Source: an uncultured Christensenella sp. (lineage in GTDB: Bacteria > Bacillota > Clostridia > Christensenellales > DTU072). Taken from it: 64,000 nucleotides of DNA. Shown here piece by piece: positions 59,362 through 64,000 of this stretch. The position numbers and the translations under genes were made by a program. Each line of letters begins with the position of its first letter. Position 1 is the stretch's first letter. The notes below the pieces were generated by a model. The model was not told where the DNA came from. It worked only from the letters and a program-made list of their open reading frames with translations, and searched no databases. The stretch is taken from the NCBI GenBank assembly GCA_949285605.1, contig CASDZI010000002.1, positions 14,683 to 78,682 of the forward strand, written 5' to 3'.

Positions 59362-61188
59362 ATGCACCTTATCCGTAAGATAACCCCGGATCTGTATTAC
59401 ACCGGGGTCAACGACAGGCGTATTGCGCTGTTTGAAAACGTCTATCCCGTCGCCAACGGCGTCAGCTACAATTCCTACGTCCTGCTCGACGAAAAAACCG
59501 TGGTGTTCGATACCGCCGACGGTAATTTCACCAACAAGTATCTCGCTAACGTCGCCGCCGCACTGAACGGACGGAAAGCCGACTACCTCGTAGTCAGCCA
59601 TATGGAACCCGACCACAGCGCTTCGGTAAAGGCTTTGATGAACGCCTACCCCGATATGAAAGTTATCTGCAACTCCAAGTCGATAACCATGCTCGCCAAC
59701 TTTTTCGGAGATATTTCCGACAGAGCCGTTCTCGTCAAAGACGGGGAGACGATTTCCGTCGGAAAAAATACCCTTAAATTCGTGTTTGCGCCCATGGTAC
59801 ACTGGCCGGAAGTCATGATGACTTATCTCGTGGAGGAAAAGGTTCTTTTCTCCGCCGACGCTTTCGGTTCTTTCGGAGCCCTCGACGGGAATTTGTTTGC
59901 CGAAGAGAAGTCGTTTGAAGAGTATCTCCCCGAAGCAAGACGGTATTACACCAATATCGTGGGAAAATACGGCGCTCAGGTTCAGGCCGCCGTCAAAAAA
60001 CTCGCCGGCGTCCCCGTCGATTACGTCTGCCCTCTGCACGGCGTGATCTGGAAAAAGGATTTTGCGAAAATTCTGGCAAAATATCTCCTTTGGGCGGATT
60101 ACGAACCCGAAACCTCTACTGCGATGATAGTTTACGGGTCGGTTTACGGCGATACTGCGGAAGCTGCGGAAACGCTGGCGGCTTTCCTCGCCGAAAGAGG
60201 AGTAAGGGACATCAAAGTTTACGACGTGTCCAAAACGCATTATTCCTACCTTATCAGCGAAGCGTTCAGGGTGAGCAACATAGTTTTTGCGTCCATAACC
60301 TACAACGCTTCGGTCTTCCCCGCTATGGAACATTTTGTCAGAGAACTTACCGCCCACGGACTGAAGAAACGCTCCTTGAGCATAATTCAGAACGGCAGCT
60401 GGGCACCGGTGAGCGGAGCCAAGATAAAGGAAGTGCTCGCCGGTTGGAAAGACTCCTTTATCGTGGGCGAAACCGTTACTTTGAACAGTGCGGTCAAGGA
60501 AAATACCGTCGCCGAACTGGCTACCCTTGCCGACGCAATAGTTCTTTCGATGAATAAACCGTCGGTGGAAACCACGGGTACCGACGTTTCCGCAATGTTC
60601 AAGATAAGCTACGGTCTTTACGTTCTGACGGTAAAAGACGGCGACAAGGACAACGGCTGTATCATAAACACCGCTTCCCAGCTGACCGAAAACCCGAGAA
60701 GGGTAACTATAGCCGTCAACAAATCGGGCTATACCTGCGAACTGTTGCAGAAAAACGACCTTTTCAATCTGTCGGTACTTAGCGAAAAAACGCCTTTCGA
60801 CGTGTTCAAACGGTTCGGCTTTGCAAGCGGCAGGGATACCGACAAATTTGCGGGAACGGAGAAAGTGCGTTCTTCCAACGGACTTACCTATCTGCCCGAA
60901 TACGCCAATGCGGTAATTTCCGCTAAGATAGTCGCCCGTCACGACTACGGCACGCATATGCTGTTCGTAGCCGACGTCACCGAGGCAAAAACCCTCAACG
61001 GTGACCCCTCGGCGACATACGACTACTATTTCAAACACATCAAGACCGCTCCCCCGAAAGCGGAAGCGAAAAAGAAAGGCTTCGTCTGCAAGATCTGCAA
61101 TTACGTCTATGAAGGAGAAACCTTGCCTCCCGATTTTATCTGTCCTATCTGCAAACACGGAGCCGAAGACTTCGAACCTTTGAAATAA
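59362..61188 (+). CDS. Flavodiiron protein fused to flavin reductase and rubredoxin-like domains
   Basis: HMEPDH, HWPE, SADAFG, PLHG; flavodoxin; ISYGLYV...NGCIINT; CKIC...CPIC. Confidence 0.9.
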   Translation: MHLIRKITPDLYYTGVNDRRIALFENVYPVANGVSYNSYVLLDEKTVVFDTADGNFTNKYLANVAAALNGRKADYLVVSHMEPDHSASVKALMNAYPDMKVICNSKSITMLANFFGDISDRAVLVKDGETISVGKNTLKFVFAPMVHWPEVMMTYLVEEKVLFSADAFGSFGALDGNLFAEEKSFEEYLPEARRYYTNIVGKYGAQVQAAVKKLAGVPVDYVCPLHGVIWKKDFAKILAKYLLWADYEPETSTAMIVYGSVYGDTAEAAETLAAFLAERGVRDIKVYDVSKTHYSYLISEAFRVSNIVFASITYNASVFPAMEHFVRELTAHGLKKRSLSIIQNGSWAPVSGAKIKEVLAGWKDSFIVGETVTLNSAVKENTVAELATLADAIVLSMNKPSVETTGTDVSAMFKISYGLYVLTVKDGDKDNGCIINTASQLTENPRRVTIAVNKSGYTCELLQKNDLFNLSVLSEKTPFDVFKRFGFASGRDTDKFAGTEKVRSSNGLTYLPEYANAVISAKIVARHDYGTHMLFVADVTEAKTLNGDPSATYDYYFKHIKTAPPKAEAKKKGFVCKICNYVYEGETLPPDFICPICKHGAEDFEPLK

Positions 61189-61205
61189 AATCCCGAAAAA
61201 TATCG

Positions 61206-61237
61206 AAACGACCGCATTTCGGCGGTCGTTTTTTTTT
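61206..61237 (+). terminator. Intrinsic terminator
   Basis: AACGACCGC...GCGGTCGTT plus T tract. Confidence 0.8.
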
Positions 61238-61254
61238 GGAAATTCACGGACGGA

Positions 61255-61920
61255 TCATTCTTCCTTATTCCCCTCGTTCTTCTCGTTCTCTTCGGAAGGG
61301 TCGGGACTTCCCTCGGCGGCTTTTTCCTCGACAACTTTTTCCTCGGAATTTTCTTCCTGCTTTCCTTTCTTAGCCAGTTTGTTGGTGTTGATACTCTTGG
61401 CATACACCACGAAACGGCACCACAGAAATTCCAACGTCAGGTTCTGCGCCATGCAGATGAACAGAACGAGGTATTCGTTCCAGCCTTTGTCCATCGTGAG
61501 AAAATCCGTCAACCACACCGAATACGGGGTAAAAGCGACGTAAAAAAGGAACACCAACGCCATCGCCAAAGGCACGTTGTTGGCGGACTTGAAAGTGTAA
61601 CGGCGGTTTACGGTAAAATTGTAAAGTACGCTCAGCACCAAAGCGATAAGGTAGCTTACCCAGTAATTCCAACGTATGATCTCGTTCATCAAAGTGAACG
61701 CCCCGAGCTGGATTATACCCGCGCCGCAGGAAAAGAGCACGAATTTGAGGACCTGGATAAAGGTCTCCTTGGGGGTGAGCTTGACTTTGCCTTTACCTTC
61801 CTCCGAATCGTCCTTTGTCCGACAAGCGACGGCAGCCTCTTCGACGTCGGAATCTACGACGAGCTCCTTACTCTCCTCGCCGCAACCGTCGCAAAATGCT
61901 TTCTTATCTTTTTCTTCCAT
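61255..61920 (-). CDS. GtrA family membrane protein
   Basis: QVLKFVLFS, NFTVNRRYTFKS, four TM segments. Confidence 0.85.
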   Translation of the reverse strand: MEEKDKKAFCDGCGEESKELVVDSDVEEAAVACRTKDDSEEGKGKVKLTPKETFIQVLKFVLFSCGAGIIQLGAFTLMNEIIRWNYWVSYLIALVLSVLYNFTVNRRYTFKSANNVPLAMALVFLFYVAFTPYSVWLTDFLTMDKGWNEYLVLFICMAQNLTLEFLWCRFVVYAKSINTNKLAKKGKQEENSEEKVVEEKAAEGSPDPSEENEKNEGNKEE

Positions 61921-61965
61921 ATTCTCTCCGAAAAAAACCGCCCTCAAAAGGCGGCTAAGGGGTGA

Positions 61966-62892
61966 TTATCCTTTCAGATGCTTATCCATAAAGGCGAAAA
62001 CTTTTTCGAAACACTCTTTGGACGCTTTCGTCCACATATTCATATGGAAACAATGGTTGTCTATGAATTTCGTACTGGAATAAGTTTCGGTTTCCACTCC
62101 TGCGTCGATAAGGAGTTTAGCCAGAATTTCCCCCTGCCCTTTGCAGAAAATATCTTTCTTGCTCATCACGAGAAAACTCGGACACCAGTTCCCGTTGACG
62201 AAATTCGAGGGGCATATTTCTTTTATGTAAGGATAATCCTTAATGTTGGAGAAATCCTTTTTAAGCCCGAAATCGGCTCCCAAATAACATCTTCCGATAT
62301 CCCAAACAAGATTAAAAGGCAACTTCGTGAGTTCTATGGACGCCATCAGATCGTACGGTCCGCAGAAGCTCACCAAAAGGGCGGGTCTGACTTTGAACTC
62401 GGGGATACCGAGGGCGGTGCGTTGTTCTTCGCTGTTTGCTAACGACACCAGCTGCGTGGCGCAATACGCCCCTGCGCTGTCGCCCGTCACGCAGACCTTG
62501 TCGAGGTCTATATTATATTTTTCGGCGAGGACGGTCAGGTAATTAAGGGCGTTCACGCAGTCGGCGAGCGGAATGGGAAAAGGTCTCCTCGGGCTGAGTC
62601 CGTAGTTAATGTTTACGGTAAAATATCCGTGGTGAGCGAAACGTTTACAAAGACTTTTTCTGTGTTTTTTGTCCCCTTTAACGAAACCGCCTCCGTGAAT
62701 GTTCAGTACCACAGGCAATTTCTTCTCCCCGAGCAAAGCGGGGTCGTAATAAACTTCCCCGTTACATTCGTCGGGACGGGACTCGTCGTAAGCAAATTCC
62801 TTTTCTCTGACGATCCCCTTGTATCTGCGGTAGTTTTGAGCCGGATGGAACAATACGTCGATAGCCGTAAACAAAAATTCCGAACGTGTCAT
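61966..62892 (-). CDS. Alpha/beta hydrolase (HSL-type esterase)
   Basis: HGGGF, GDSAG. Confidence 0.88.
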   Translation of the reverse strand: MTRSEFLFTAIDVLFHPAQNYRRYKGIVREKEFAYDESRPDECNGEVYYDPALLGEKKLPVVLNIHGGGFVKGDKKHRKSLCKRFAHHGYFTVNINYGLSPRRPFPIPLADCVNALNYLTVLAEKYNIDLDKVCVTGDSAGAYCATQLVSLANSEEQRTALGIPEFKVRPALLVSFCGPYDLMASIELTKLPFNLVWDIGRCYLGADFGLKKDFSNIKDYPYIKEICPSNFVNGNWCPSFLVMSKKDIFCKGQGEILAKLLIDAGVETETYSSTKFIDNHCFHMNMWTKASKECFEKVFAFMDKHLKG

Positions 62893-62996
62893 AAGTCCTC
62901 CAAAAATTTCTTCGATAATAATATAATATTATACTCTAAACGGAAAGCTAATTCAAGGATAATTAAAAATAATTTTAACGAATTAGAATATAATAA

Positions 62997-63024
62997 TTGA
63001 CTTTCTGCGGTTAAATGATATAAT
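62997..63024 (+). promoter_or_regulatory. Sigma-A promoter upstream of the tRNA-Arg repeat region
   Basis: TTGACT-16-TATAAT with TG extension and AT-rich upstream element. Confidence 0.7.
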
Positions 63025-63097
63025 AAATGACGATATCCCCAAAAAGCATTACTGCTTTTCGGGGACCACGAAGAAAAACCCCAAAACGCGGTGCCGC

Positions 63098-63398
63098 TTT
63101 TCGGGGACCCCGAAGAAAAACCCCCGGTAAGTGTTTTTTCGGAAGACTTAATACCCCAACCTTTGGTTCCGTATTAAGTGTGTACCTTTAACTTAATATT
63201 TTCTTTTATGCGCCTTTAGCTCAATTGGATAAAGCGCTATACCCCAAAAAACGTTGCCGTTTTTCGGGGACCCCGAAGAAAAACCCCTGTAAGTGTTTTT
63301 TCGGAAGACTTAATACCCCAACCTTTGGTTCCGTATTAAGTATGTACCTTTAACTTAATAATTTCTTTTATGCGCCTTTAGCTCAATTGGATAGAGCG
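63098..63398 (+). repeat. Tandem duplication, ~139-bp unit with ~162-bp period
   Basis: 63098-63236 matches 63261-63398 with only a few differences. Confidence 0.9.
63210..63236 (+). pseudogene. Truncated 5' fragment of tRNA-Arg
   Basis: GCGCCTTTAGCTCAATTGGATAAAGCG, 26/27 identical to the tRNA 5' end, followed closely by a palindrome copy. Confidence 0.8.
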
Positions 63399-63448
63399 TT
63401 GGTCTACGGAACCAAAGGTTGGGGATTCGAGCTCCTCAAGGCGCGCCA
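63372..63448 (+). tRNA. tRNA-Arg (anticodon ACG)
   Basis: 77-nt cloverleaf: GCGCCTT/AAGGCGC acceptor stem, TTGGT-CTACGGA-ACCAA anticodon arm, TTCGA T-loop, encoded CCA. Confidence 0.95.
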
Positions 63449-63485
63449 AAAAATATCCGCTACATTTTTGTAGCGGATATTTTTT
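63448..63485. terminator. Terminator after the tRNA
   Basis: Perfect AAAAAATATCCGCTACA-TTTT-TGTAGCGGATATTTTTT. Confidence 0.85.
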
Positions 63486-63817
63486 CGCCTTGAGGACTTG
63501 CGAAGACCCAAAGGGGATTCGCAAATTGCCGTCAGGCAATCTGATGAGGTGCGGCTCACTTCTACTTACGGTATTTTCTTATCAGCACATATATGCTTAA
63601 TATAGGTATTCACTTTATCCGAATGGGTCCTCAAGGCGCGGCTTATCCGTTAAAATAGGACTTGCGAATCACCAAAAGGGATTCGTAAAGCCACCCCAAA
63701 AAGCATTACTGCTTTTCGGGGACCCCGGTTTTTTCTTCCTAAAGAGTTTTCCCCTTCACTCTGTAGCACATATATGCTTATATAGGTATTCACTTTATCC
63801 GAATGGGTCCTCAAGGC
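63486..63817. repeat. Two related structured units carrying tRNA 3'-end sequence
   Basis: AGGACTTGCGAA at 63493 and 63657; a ~54-bp block 63584-63637 repeated at 63765-63817 ending in TCCTCAAGGC. Confidence 0.8.
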
Positions 63818-63896
63818 ACAGCGCTACCCCAAAAAACGTTGCAGTTTTTCGGGGGACCGGAATAAATGCCGCTCATAGACATTTTTTCAACAGTGT

Positions 63897-63949
63897 TTGA
63901 CATTCTTTTACGGTGGTATTACAATATCAATATCCCCCCATGGGGGATA
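63897..63949 (+). promoter_or_regulatory. Sigma-A promoter plus CsoR/RcnR-type operator
   Basis: TTGACA-17-TACAAT; C/G-tract inverted repeat TATCCCCCCATGGGGGATA at 63931-63949. Confidence 0.75.
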
Positions 63950-63959
63950 AGGAGAAATT

Positions 63960-64000
63960 ATGGAACCGCATAAACACACGCAAGCCGTCCTAAACAGGAC
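63960..64000 (+). CDS. 5' end of a probable CsoR/RcnR-family metal-sensing repressor (truncated by window edge)
   Basis: AAGGAG RBS; MEPHKHTQAVLNR; operator directly upstream. Confidence 0.55.
   Translation, partial: MEPHKHTQAVLNR

Follow-up and report, generated by a model that had tools for sequence, protein, structure and literature searches.

Antisense copies of a tRNA-Arg(ACG) anticodon region in a Christensenella genome and a related family of small structured non-coding elements

As a rule, the part of a tRNA gene that integrative elements rebuild is the 3′ part, and the repeats of E. coli tyrT have been a known oddity since the 1970s. The internal guide sequence of a group I intron pairs as one contiguous antisense stretch with both sides of the insertion point, and in bridge RNAs each loop holds split guides for the two strands. 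To our knowledge, IS608 leaves no long target repeat. Displaced tRNA-gene fragments of integrative elements constitute the Islander signature (Williams 2002, as cited in PMC9897764), and a tRNA-dependent lysogeny is described by Guerrero-Bustamante & Hatfull 2024 (PMC10865867). PMC3201880 and PMC5934647 report that IS608 (IS200/IS605) transposes as a single strand with internal guide sequences, and according to PMC11208160 IS110-family elements encode a structured non-coding RNA, the bridge RNA, which sets the target by complementarity and is re-programmable.

The DNA analysed here, referred to as the window, is a stretch of 64,000 nucleotides from an uncultured Christensenella sp., whose genome (G000, genus g1, 93% complete) contains a single tRNA-Arg(ACG) gene. 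This gene, called by ARAGORN and matched by Rfam with a tRNA score of 62.5 bits, lies at 63372–63448 on the + strand, as do all features of the locus given below. In agreement with a sequence-only reading of the window, a direct sequence check located CCCCAACCTTTGGTTCCGTA twice upstream of the gene, at 63154–63173 (distal copy, inverted pair I1) and 63316–63335 (proximal copy, inverted pair I2), each copy being 100% complementary over 20 nt to 63405–63424 inside the tRNA. The matched stretch corresponds to positions 34–53 in linear tRNA numbering; it runs from U33 through the anticodon and the remaining loop into the 3′ anticodon stem, then takes in the variable loop and four bases of the T-stem. 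According to our own arithmetic (~58 × 1181 placements / 4^20), about 6e-8 exact 20-mers are expected by chance per tRNA with 1.2 kb of flank. The two antisense 20-mers are not independent of each other, since both lie inside one 162-bp tandem duplication (63098–63236 and 63260–63398, 91% identical), which also contains a truncated 5′ tRNA copy (63210–63236).

In the distal tandem unit (63098–63236; repeat family D2, 139 nt, 91% to the proximal unit at a spacing of 162) a spacer is followed by a hairpin around the inverse copy (63146–63179, a local hairpin in the MFE fold), the leader motif AACTTAATA with a spacer (63191–63209) and a displaced, truncated tRNA-Arg 5′ part (63210–63236; positions 1–27, one mismatch), i.e. 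a 22-nt exact sense match to the tRNA and then AAGCG. The proximal unit comprises its P3 module (63242–63275, family D3), the equivalent hairpin (63308–63341) and AACTTAATA with a spacer (63353–63371), which is joined to the working tRNA, and it is matched weakly by model R1 of the scaffold described below (63179–63316, 24.1 bits). The stem reported around each 20-mer was recovered at both copies, with ACTTAATAC at 63146–63154 and 63308–63316 and GTATTAAGT at 63171–63179 and 63333–63341, as was the second ACTTAATA (63191–63198 and 63353–63360). The latter is included in the leader motif AAYTTAATAT, which occurs in most related units of other genomes and is absent from all element-free loci. 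A −10 box and a dif-like Xer arm were both rejected as readings of this motif, its spacing to the tRNA start and to any −35 being inconsistent between loci. Farther upstream, two P3 module copies (CCCCAAAA..TTTTCGGGGACC, repeat family D3) at 63037–63112 represent the remains of one or more older units, the first displaced tRNA 5′ part being absent in G000; at the matching place the close relative G008 holds a leader and a truncated tRNA, and a G008-like leader variant was also found in run X2. In line with the earlier reading, the array is preceded by a sigma-70-like promoter (62997–63024; TTGACT-16-TATAAT, 11/12, TG extension), which would drive leader and tRNA and which is the sole promoter-like + strand site upstream of the tRNA; no minus-strand promoter-like site was found inside the upstream units of the window. 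The flanks consist of housekeeping genes with no large mobile element beside the locus, and no displaced 3′ half of tRNA-Arg was detected anywhere in the G000 assembly.

Judged from sequence, the upstream units are degraded members of a family whose small, structured, non-coding elements are present in multiple copies in metagenome-assembled genomes (MAGs) of gut Clostridia. A pattern scan with one genome per GTDB species gave 32 loci with intact units, all from Clostridia-type or Firmicutes/Bacillota MAGs, one of which (L047) is a chance match. The intact units are arranged in the order displaced tRNA part, two-hairpin scaffold, junction copy, new leader or terminator, and rebuilt gene. In the 5′ to 3′ direction of the tRNA strand, the units begin with the old tRNA part (1–41, ending ...ACGGAACC), followed by TGCTCG, a long hairpin P2 of variable sequence and conserved shape, CTGCGC, hairpin P3 (CCCCAAAAA..TTTTTGGGGNCCCC), a linker of 2–9 nt, the junction copy AACCTTTGGTTCC, which is the inverse copy of tRNA 36–48 and spans the break 41|42, and finally a small hairpin, the leader AAYTTAATAT and the complete tRNA; the element consequently sits in the 3′ strand of the anticodon stem. 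Throughout the family the junction copy is 12–22 nt long and inverse to the insertion junction. Its 3′ half (GGTTCC) pairs with the end of the displaced part (GGAACC), thereby closing the scaffold, and its 5′ half matches the target past the break. The elements measure ~90–230 bp, with a scaffold body of ~115 nt and two hairpins.

As for Islanders, the tRNA gene is split and rebuilt, a displaced direct-repeat partial copy is left behind (1–27 in G000, 1–41 in intact units) and the anticodon loop is the crossover region. Unlike Islanders, the units of 90–230 bp are non-coding and contain no integrase gene of their own, they rebuild the 5′ part together with a new leader, and they carry an inverse junction copy beside a covarying scaffold, in either orientation and also at non-tRNA targets. 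A REP element was rejected as a reading of CCCCAAAA..TTTTCGGGG: this hairpin is P3 of the scaffold, and all G000 copies on contigs with a called tRNA lie less than ~1 kb from it, mostly at 300 nt or less, the only other copy being on contig C7, where no tRNA was called. A literature search did not find a description of the element family, which seems to be undescribed; the supplements of PMC9897764, which hold tRNA fragment lists, might contain similar cases.

Analysis of 16 units by alifold unveiled changes on both sides in 17 of 27 pairs. When 40 further copies were aligned to model R1, 88.9% of the cells were paired, compared to 65.9% in shuffles, and double changes were present in 23 of the 27 pairs. 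The covariation score amounted to 0.42 versus 0.12 for shuffled alignments, none of 500 shuffles reaching 0.42, and slid controls scored at most 0.11. Helix 1, the P1 stem formed by the displaced end and the junction copy, also changes on both sides and pairs over 6–22 nt. With respect to the strand, wobble-type cells (27 vs 17) and pyrimidine-pyrimidine versus purine-purine mismatches (68 vs 13) lean family-wide to the top strand. For 15 of the 16 Arg(ACG) units the bottom strand gives the lower MFE, an advantage due mostly to a single A·C mismatch in one variant of P3. When the reverse strand was simply aligned with MAFFT, P2 came out too poorly aligned, and no structure was obtained. Rfam scans of window positions 60000–64000 (E up to 1) and of seven intact-unit loci returned only tRNA and chance-level miRNA/sRNA matches, and at the units these scans gave no match to a small self-cleaving ribozyme, a group I intron (Intron_gpI) or a T-box (RF00230). 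An unrelated T-box match below threshold (74 bits vs a gathering score of 93) lies 4 kb away at locus L050. In contrast to a T-box leader, the upstream units hold a continuous antisense of 13–20 nt and precede the very tRNA that they match. The order within the antisense stretch, 3′-side and then 5′-side, is that of a group I intron; at ~115 nt the body is nevertheless much smaller than a group I core, and the repeated part, not splicing, restores the gene.

The junction copy was found re-fitted to Arg-ACG, two Arg-TCG, Gly-GCC, four Leu and two Lys tRNAs. In G437 a tRNA-Arg(TCG) carries AACCCTCAGTTCC versus GGAACTGAGGGTT, and another tRNA-Arg(TCG) in G420 carries CTCAATGGTTCC versus GGAACCATTGAG, its displaced part ending GGAACC|TGCTCG. 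The corresponding copies are GGCAAATGTCGC for tRNA-Gly(GCC), TGTGGTGAAACGG for tRNA-Leu(CAG), AAGTGGTGGAATG for tRNA-Leu(CAA) and TTTTAATCAAGGG for tRNA-Lys(TTT). Even among the Arg(ACG) loci the copy tracks the tRNA at one variable position, which is G in 7 of 8 tRNAs with AAAGGCT and A in all with AAAGGTT. A 13-nt core of the junction copy stays perfect between units that are otherwise unalignable. Scaffold and junction copy are also found past the terminators that follow Leu, Lys and Gly tRNAs, there on the other strand, and scaffold copies occur at non-tRNA targets as well. Model R1 gave 84 matches in 19 of 20 genomes, with up to 13 in one genome. In a crude census of 56 copies, P3 was recognisable in 53, in 34 at least 15 nt of the left flank recurred downstream as a direct copy and an inverse copy of at least 10 nt was detected in 38; 21 passed both tests with the inverse copy spanning the repeat end, and 34 adjoin tRNAs. 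By the crude test of this census, the junction copy was not found in about a third of the scaffold copies. The earlier suggestion of an element that homes to the tRNA with a guide-like or target-memory sequence fits these data, both in the copy number of the scaffold and in the match of the inverse copy to the junction of each target (three kinds of tRNA-Arg, Gly, Leu and Lys).

Units are present in six of 20 related genomes, i.e. at five of 19 tRNA-holding loci and in G008, whose contig ends inside the array. The other 14 of 20 related loci lack the unit, element-free loci having short ordinary leaders, and in the order the pattern was detected in 5 of 401 genomes (controls 0). The ACTTAATAC/GTATTAAGT stem is not kept in the relatives, where the segment is paired otherwise. 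Without its P1 partner the junction copy is paired in three different local hairpins, one in G000/G008, one in G004/G001 and one in the Christensenella short form, which is present in isolates of the Christensenella or Catabacter type. Units within a genome are more alike than units of different genomes, which also fits purely local duplication, and in the material analysed we saw neither an excised circle nor empty-site polymorphism within a species nor recent identical copies at different targets. The interpretation given by the sequence-only reading is partly supported overall.

Profile searches in G000 gave one tyrosine recombinase and no Y1 transposase (PF01797), IS110 (PF01548), TnpB (PF07282) or reverse transcriptase (PF00078). 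Among 20 genomes with intact units, Y1_Tnp was detected in six, RVT_1 in two and IS110 in one, the latter two never beside a scaffold, and TnpB exceeded the cut-off in none; none of these four enzymes shows an association with the element that holds over G000 and the 20 genomes. Phage_integrase, present in 20 of 20, is the only family found in all genomes checked, the tyrosine recombinase common to them measuring roughly 345 aa, and phage-type integrase genes lie 300–520 nt from a scaffold in three loci. A tyrosine recombinase is expected in every genome anyway. No recurrent ORF was seen beside the scaffold among the copies listed.

In one genome, G418, the anticodon loop is used as attachment site by a large mobile element with phage-like genes. 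This element interrupts the displaced tRNA part at TCTACGGA and has a tRNA-Arg(ACG) of its own, which follows AACTTAATAT, the same leader motif as in the small units. With a core of only 8 bp (TCTACGGA), a tRNA that is not rebuilt and its own tRNA of the same isotype, this element is comparable to tRNA-dependent lysogeny; the likeness concerns the large element and not the small units, and the G000 locus has neither phage nor island beside it. On a viral contig a tRNA-Arg 5′ fragment lies 55 nt from a tyrosine integrase gene. A search of viral contigs gave a single match, in which CCTTTGGTT, beside a different tRNA-Arg fragment, is probably due to chance.

Direct observation covers the layout, the covariation of the structure, the fit of the junction copy to other targets, the patchy multi-copy distribution and, in one genome, the large mobile element attached at this anticodon loop. 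With some reserve we favour a small, mobile DNA element that uses its antisense segment to recognise the target or to recombine with it, and on balance we take the two 20-mers for the junction copies in a tandem pair of degraded units that belong to a small non-coding insertion element. Such an element would land inside the tRNA gene and displace the old 5′ part, and the rebuilt gene would still work because the element brings a new leader and a fresh 5′ part. We infer that the junction copy acts at the DNA level, where it may fold as a single strand into an attachment site resembling the target duplex, or may guide by base pairing as the 4-nt guides of IS608 do. A recombinase provided in trans would thereby be able to cut after GGAACC in element and target, and the repeated tRNA part would belong to the element as its right end instead of being a duplication that was filled in. 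Since the element finishes, at its right end, in a sequence like that of the target's left flank, excision would restore the target, a trait shared with IS608. In genus g1, including G000, a deletion from the D arm to P3 may have removed the anticodon arm of the displaced part together with P2; new local hairpins would then have arisen around the junction copy, the match in G000 would have grown to 20 nt and its units would have been doubled by unequal crossing-over. The G000 copies are thus probably relics and no longer mobile, and they are probably transcribed with the tRNA only because they are placed behind its promoter.

Structured hairpin ends are a further feature in common with IS608, as would be recognition of the site by pairing with a short element-internal sequence. 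The guides of IS608 measure 4 nt, in contrast to 12–22 nt here, and its Y1 transposase is absent from G000 and present in only six of the 20 genomes. The small units differ from the bridge RNA by their one contiguous, junction-spanning copy and from IS110 elements by the recombinase, which is missing in G000 and occurs in one of the 20 genomes. With the omega RNA of TnpB only the topology, scaffold and then guide, is alike.

The mobile element has to be weighed against a cis-acting RNA leader, whose antisense would pair with the anticodon arm and variable loop of the pre-tRNA and delay or gate its folding, RNase P processing or modification, the local hairpin being the off state. In the window the units do lie between the sole promoter-like site and the tRNA, and in the predicted MFE fold of the co-transcript, a check proposed by the sequence-only reading, every base of the proximal 20-mer is paired with the tRNA (−73.4 kcal/mol for unit plus tRNA vs −60.2 for the parts apart; −37.8 for the duplex alone). 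The perfect 13-nt core between unalignable flanks and the three local hairpins that pair this core after loss of the P1 partner also speak for a leader, and conservation of the core could reflect a host-level RNA function, as it could quasi-palindrome correction against the tRNA. The unit is, however, lacking at the 14 related loci and in 396 of the 401 genomes scanned in the order, and is therefore not needed to make tRNA-Arg(ACG); the flanking stem is not conserved, and the scaffold cannot act as a leader where it stands on the opposite strand behind the terminators of Leu, Lys and Gly tRNAs or at non-tRNA targets. Pairing over 20 bp with the mature portion of a tRNA that is essential and single-copy, moreover, looks more harmful than regulatory. 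We regard a leader as unlikely, and the cis-acting switch or tRNA-sensing leader proposed previously is not supported as the origin of the sequence.

Equally little credence is given to a guide RNA of an RNA-guided enzyme, laid out like the omega RNA of TnpB and functioning like the IS110 bridge RNA, with the scaffold as protein-binding RNA and the 12–22-mer as programmable guide for insertion, cleavage or modification; having no Rfam match, it would be a new RNA class. A covarying scaffold followed after 2–9 nt by a target-complementary segment which is re-fitted to at least nine tRNA species suits such a guide, as do the mismatch types, which lean to the strand where the scaffold precedes it. 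What it lacks is a partner, as evidenced by the scarcity of IS110 and TnpB and the absence of a recurrent ORF, and also a promoter: downstream-type copies face the tRNA terminator with no evident promoter, and the window units have only the promoter-like site of the tRNA itself upstream and no internal minus-strand site. Furthermore, half of the putative guide is locked in P1 with the displaced fragment. One contig of an RNA-library run (X20, depth 2.9, 7 differences) lies on 63223–63375 and indicates neither transcription nor a processing site, since the library may contain DNA and DNA contigs also break at the tRNA start. The units might finally be passive debris of repeated integrase events, deletions and accidental inverted duplication at a hot attachment site, with a functionless antisense. 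The large element in G418, the tRNA-Arg fragment near the integrase gene on the viral contig, the visibly degraded and duplicated state of the G000 units and the displaced tRNA fragments from integrations, which are common according to PMC9897764, agree with this. Debris would not keep a covarying two-hairpin scaffold or a perfect 13-nt core between unalignable units, nor would it recur with junction copies matched to other tRNAs; we deem it very improbable, and the simple inverted-duplication scar suggested at the outset falls on the same core and the strong covariation of the scaffold.

Behind the tRNA, a terminator hairpin and then CGCCTTGAGGA, which repeats the tRNA 3′ end in inverse orientation (63445–63496, inverted pair I3), mark the start of a downstream tail unit. 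Tail unit 1 (63486–63640, repeat families D4 and D6) has a different scaffold in a like layout and ends in TCCTCAAGGCGCG, a sense copy of the tRNA 3′ end; in tail unit 2 (63641–63822) a P3 module replaces one hairpin. Both are repeats behind a tRNA that end in a copy of its 3′ end, and 63486–63822 thus resembles RtT (E. coli tyrT, RF00391) in its layout of terminator, arm antisense to the tRNA, folded body and copy of the tRNA 3′ end, which is also that of the opposite-strand copies at Leu, Lys and Gly tRNAs. The upstream antisense units are the mirror image of this layout, a likeness judged by layout, and RF00391 had no match in window positions 60000–64000 (E up to 1) or the seven intact-unit loci. 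One scaffold links the upstream and downstream layouts at tRNA genes. A hammerhead was rejected as a reading of the tail units (CTGA[T/C]GAG ... CGARTGG): neither the order of the strands nor the A/G found where A14 would stand agrees with the hammerhead core, and Rfam returned no hammerhead match.

A wider and distinctly more tentative proposal is that of a natural programmable self-targeting insertion system, in which a ~115-nt structured nucleic acid (DNA hairpin or RNA) with a contiguous 12–22-nt junction copy would direct an enzyme to place the element in essential genes, tRNA genes among them, the element would repair the gene with its own part, and the upstream antisense leader and the downstream RtT-like units would be two orientations of one mobile-element class. 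If true, the half-tRNAs and antisense pieces that surround tRNA genes would have been left by tiny non-coding mobile elements which encode their target as a plain complementary copy. This would explain a recurrent annotation problem (pseudo-tRNAs, tandem tRNA fragments), supply a testable rule for the landing sites of the elements and point to an enzyme that reads a nucleic-acid address of 12–22 nt, an activity akin to those of the useful IS110 and TnpB. In G000, the single tRNA-Arg(ACG) precursor with its two perfect antisense stretches of 20 nt may have a lowered tRNA yield.

The only tRNA gene placed in the window, tRNA-Arg(ACG) at 63372-63448 on the forward strand (ARAGORN and Rfam), is preceded on the same strand by two antisense 20-mers at 63154-63173 and 63316-63335, which the repeat finder returned as inverted pairs with 100% complementarity to 63405-63424, confirming the two exact copies claimed by the sequence-only reading. 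According to our own arithmetic, the chance expectation for an exact 20-nt inverted match is about 6e-8 for this tRNA with a flank of 1.2 kb. The stem ACTTAATAC/GTATTAAGT described around each 20-mer is present, as is a further ACTTAATA 17 nt downstream, and the promoter proposed ahead of the leader was recovered at 62997-63024 as a promoter-like site (11/12 positions, TG extension), the sole one on the forward strand upstream of the gene. Absent from the earlier description were a 162-bp tandem duplication carrying both 20-mers (63098-63236 and 63260-63398, 91% identical) and a truncated 5' tRNA copy closing each tandem unit, the displaced copy lying at 63210-63236. A displaced 3' half was not found anywhere in the source assembly (1.71 Mb, 69 contigs, 47.6% G+C, 41 tRNA genes called, 93% complete). 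The locus is flanked by an esterase gene on one side and by transporter, glutamine synthetase, asparagine synthase, GMP synthase and CTP synthase genes on the other.

Upstream inverse copies were observed at five of the 19 tRNA-Arg(ACG) loci fetched from 41 genomes of the genus and order: in the source genome G000, in G004 (three units of 150 bp), G001 (two units of 156 bp) and G019 (one unit without the displaced half), and in G031 from another family (three units of 88 bp). Furthermore, G008 carries an array of the G000 type at the end of a contig. The motif AACTTAATA, which precedes the tRNA in most unit-bearing loci, is absent from all 14 unit-free loci. Among 401 genomes sampled evenly across the order, G000 counted, the pattern occurred in five and a reversed control pattern in none. 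With one genome scanned per GTDB species, 32 loci were obtained, all with record titles naming an uncultured Clostridia, Clostridiales, Christensenella, Catabacter, Lachnospiraceae, Firmicutes or Bacillota MAG; one of them (L047) was discarded as a chance match. Pieces of the G000 stretch were found at 90% identity or more in a bird metagenome run (X2) and a chicken gut metagenome run (X4).

Most of the 32 loci exhibit a longer regular form, which opens with promoter and leader, followed by tRNA positions 1-41 ending in ACGGAACC, TGCTCG, the long hairpin P2, whose sequence is dissimilar from genome to genome, CTGCGC and the hairpin P3 (CCCCAAAAA..TTTTTGGGGNCCCC). After a linker of a few bases come the 13-mer AACCTTTGGTTCC, a small hairpin, AAYTTAATAT and the complete tRNA. 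This 13-mer corresponds to the reverse complement of tRNA positions 36-48 (canonical numbering) and bridges the break that follows position 41. Its 3' half, GGTTCC, closes the body by pairing with the GGAACC in which the displaced part ends. Most loci match the tRNA over 13 nt; only in G000, G019, G001 and L054 is the match extended to 16-20 nt. A common deletion, running from the D arm (..AGCG) up to the CT that precedes P3, marks the units of the genus including G000, G008, G004 and G001; both P2 and the displaced part's anticodon arm were lost with it. In these units the 13-mer is paired within newly formed local hairpins: G000 and G008 use the ACTTAATAC stem, G004 and G001 use GGAACC..GGTTCC. 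Evidently, the family is multi-copy and patchy, stands in tandem arrays and is decayed in this genus.

For 16 intact units RNAalifold predicts the closing stem, P2 and P3, with 17 of 27 pairs maintained despite two-sided changes. In a second structure test, 40 copies outside this seed were aligned to R1, the covariance model built from the 16 units. Paired cells amounted to 88.9%, compared with 65.9% in shuffles, two-sided changes were found in 23 of the 27 pairs, and the covariation score of 0.42 (0.12 in shuffles) was reached by none of 500 shuffles. An alignment fitted to R1 is biased toward the structure; the slid control, in which partners were moved by 1-3 columns, retains the same bias and scored at most 0.11. 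Helix 1, in which the displaced end pairs with the junction copy, shows two-sided changes as well. The units have no match in Rfam. With respect to the folding strand, the bottom strand had the lower minimum free energy in 15 of 16 Arg(ACG) unit bodies (mean -44.5 vs -37.5 kcal/mol), largely owing to a single A.C mismatch that the TTTTCGGGG variant of P3 contains; most other copies have TTTTTGGGG. Among the 40 copies, wobble-type cells (27 for the top strand vs 17 for the bottom) and mismatches (68 pyrimidine-pyrimidine vs 13 purine-purine) lean toward the top strand.

The junction copy follows its target. At Arg(ACG) loci the target of the 13-mer varies at a single base, AAAGG[T/C]T: an A stands opposite every T-type tRNA and a G opposite seven of the eight C-type tRNAs, the exception carrying a 1-nt deletion. 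Searching 40 sources with R1 yielded 22 strong copies over the full length, weak hits on the units of the decayed genus and body-only matches elsewhere than at tRNA-Arg; in 20 genomes with intact units, 84 matches were obtained in 19 of them, with a maximum of 13 per genome. The scaffold was found ahead of two different tRNA-Arg(TCG) genes, with the junction copies AACCCTCAGTTCC and CTCAATGGTTCC, each reverse-complementary to its own tRNA at positions 36-47/48. Scaffolds on the opposite strand lie behind tRNA-Gly(GCC), tRNA-Leu (CAG, CAA, AAG, TAG) and tRNA-Lys (CTT, TTT), every one with an inverse copy of its own junction, which may fall in the D arm, the anticodon arm or at the variable/T boundary. 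On the scaffold strand the order is constant: the target's left part comes first, then the scaffold, the inverse junction copy and a linker, after which the left part is repeated and the remainder of the target follows. A terminator is found in the linker where the scaffold faces the tRNA 3' end, and the leader motif where it faces the 5' end. We thus describe a family of small structured non-coding elements with a constant layout and a target-following junction copy, and add one covarying scaffold in both layouts, upstream and downstream, with an inverse copy across the insertion junction each time.

In a crude automatic census of 56 scaffold copies, P3 was recognisable in 53, a direct repeat of the left flank (at least 15 nt) in 34, an inverse copy (at least 10 nt) in 38, and both repeats with the inverse copy across the repeat end in 21; some failures arise because mismatches break exact matching, and other copies truly lack the features. 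Adjacency to a tRNA applied to 34 of the 56. The few non-tRNA sites comprise terminators and a protein gene at L100 (G422:C5:245290-246254), its product judged topoisomerase/gyrase B-like by eye. Here the scaffold lies at the gene's 3' end, and a repeat of the final ~43 nt of coding sequence completes the reading frame beyond the scaffold. Several scaffolds in G429 and G423 (L085, L101, L104, L106, L112) adjoin a long-hairpin repeat around CAGGAGT...ATGACTG.

Because the units sit behind the promoter, the tRNA-Arg precursor in G000 is expected to contain both 20-mers. RNAfold predicts pairing of the proximal 20-mer with the tRNA over all 20 nt, the distal one remaining inside its own local hairpin, and folds unit plus tRNA at -73.4 kcal/mol vs -60.2 kcal/mol for the parts folded separately. 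This predicted pairing in a promoter-driven precursor is the basis for an alternative in which the antisense leader acts on the co-transcribed tRNA-Arg, which we judge to be quite improbable. A switch, as offered in the sequence-only reading, is unsupported as the origin of the antisense copies, with 14 of the 19 tRNA-Arg(ACG) loci having a promoter and a short ordinary leader instead of units. The predicted pairing may reduce tRNA yield or may have been co-opted. The target memory of a homing element, also suggested there, is supported in outline, the same scaffold being re-fitted to other tRNA junctions; homing as mobile DNA is the part that we only infer. We classify the units as small insertion elements of tRNA genes that are not autonomous and that probably are or were mobile DNA.

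In such an element, the repeated target part would constitute the right end of the element itself. The observed order would arise if element and target were both cut behind one shared short sequence (GGAACC for tRNA-Arg) and then exchanged strands, and the reverse reaction would restore the intact gene. The junction copy would supply recognition, either by folding back on the element's own site copy into a hairpin attachment site or by pairing with single-stranded target DNA. Hairpin attachment sites of such a kind are known from the CTX phage and from integron attC. The pairing option may be likened to IS608, whose 4-nt guides pair with single-stranded target DNA (PMC3201880, PMC5934647). Quasi-palindrome correction by template switching is a candidate process that could keep the copy perfect and lengthen it from 13 to 20 nt in G000.

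RtT repeats lie behind E. coli tyrT. They are among the closest relatives in kind, yet Rfam RF00391 gave no match here. The closest published systems also include guide pairing in IS608, IS110 bridge RNAs (PMC11208160) and tRNA-dependent lysogeny (PMC10865867), and the units resemble integrative elements in their displaced tRNA fragments (PMC9897764). A published description of the family was not found in the literature searched, the tRNA-fragment supplement of PMC9897764 being outside its scope. That the family represents a genuinely new kind of nucleic-acid-addressed insertion system is conceivable and rather doubtful.

No enzyme tied to the element was found among five families searched in G000 and the 20 genomes with intact units. 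Tyrosine recombinases (Phage_integrase) occur in all 20 and once, as a phage type, in G000; G000 has none of the others, Y1 transposase (6/20), IS110 recombinase (1/20), reverse transcriptase (RVT_1, 2/20) and TnpB (0/20 over the cut-off). Three scaffolds lie 300-520 nt from the starts of phage-type integrase genes (L118 1-1811, L119 2365-4836, L120 1596-3368); at L119 the integrase adjoins tRNA-Lys(CTT) and two scaffolds stand head to head. A broken-frame Y1 (IS200-type) gene lies ~270 nt from a tRNA-Arg(ACG) unit (G427:C6:45108-45462, near L042/L076). The anticodon loop is a working attachment site, as seen from a large element with phage-like genes in G418, inserted at the core TCTACGGA in the anticodon loop of the displaced tRNA-Arg part of an intact unit (L058 1480-1670 on G418:C60; L028 6000-6850 on G418:C64). 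It carries genes for a small terminase subunit, ParB-like, HTH-M78 and RhuM proteins, and its far end holds a diverged complete tRNA-Arg(ACG) behind AACTTAATAT. This design resembles the tRNA-dependent lysogeny described for mycobacteriophages (PMC10865867) and would be a Clostridia counterpart. On a viral contig (IMG/VR; L060 1425-2661) a tRNA-Arg 5' fragment that extends through the anticodon loop lies 55 nt from a divergent tyrosine integrase gene, so 5'-side arrangements exist; PIF1-like helicase and primase genes follow further along.

In a scan of 600 nt on either side of each of the 41 G000 tRNAs (exact matches of at least 11 nt), an upstream inverse self-copy was unique to tRNA-Arg(ACG). 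A downstream inverse copy of the own T arm or 3' end was present at seven (Arg-ACG, Gly-CCC, Asn, Val-CAC, Leu-CAA, Ser-GGA and one Leu-CAG), usually in the order terminator, inverse copy, conserved body, sense copy of the tRNA 3' end. The hairpin CCCCAAAA..TTTTCGGGGACC was considered as a REP element and dropped, its G000 copies clustering around tRNAs: on contigs with a called tRNA all lie within ~1 kb of it, most within 300 nt, and one more lies on C7, a contig without a called tRNA.

A second scaffold type, starting with GGGCGGATAGACGG, was observed in G000 behind the terminators of tRNA-Gly(CCC), Val(CAC), Leu(CAA) and Ser(GGA) (C3:40570-40713; C18:1-121; C41:383-407 onward; C45:1081-1107 onward), each time preceded by an inverse copy of the respective T arm; at tRNA-Gly a 20-nt sense copy of the 3' end and a terminator come after it. 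A third type lies behind tRNA-Arg(ACG), Lys(CTT), Val(GAC), Arg(CCG) and Asn, as two downstream tail units in the window (63486-63640 and 63641-63822) and elsewhere at C6:14450-14743, C32:12135-12390, C56:250-546 and C3:114720-115132. Its conserved strands TTCGCAAA, YCTGA[T/C]GAGG and CCGARTGG are reminiscent of a hammerhead core, which was rejected, as their order does not fit and Rfam gave no match. A repeat beginning AACCGAGGATAAGGGCGCATATAGCGCCCTTTCTTC is found immediately 3' of tRNA-Thr(GGT), tRNA-Tyr and tRNA-Leu(CAG) and after the tRNA-Arg(CCG) tail unit (C1:87179-87300; C30:17232-17400; C59:330-535; C56:250-330). At 63897-63955 of the window, a promoter-like TTGACA-17-TACAAT is followed by the palindrome ATATCCCCCCATGGGGGATA, and a short ORF begins just after it at 63961.
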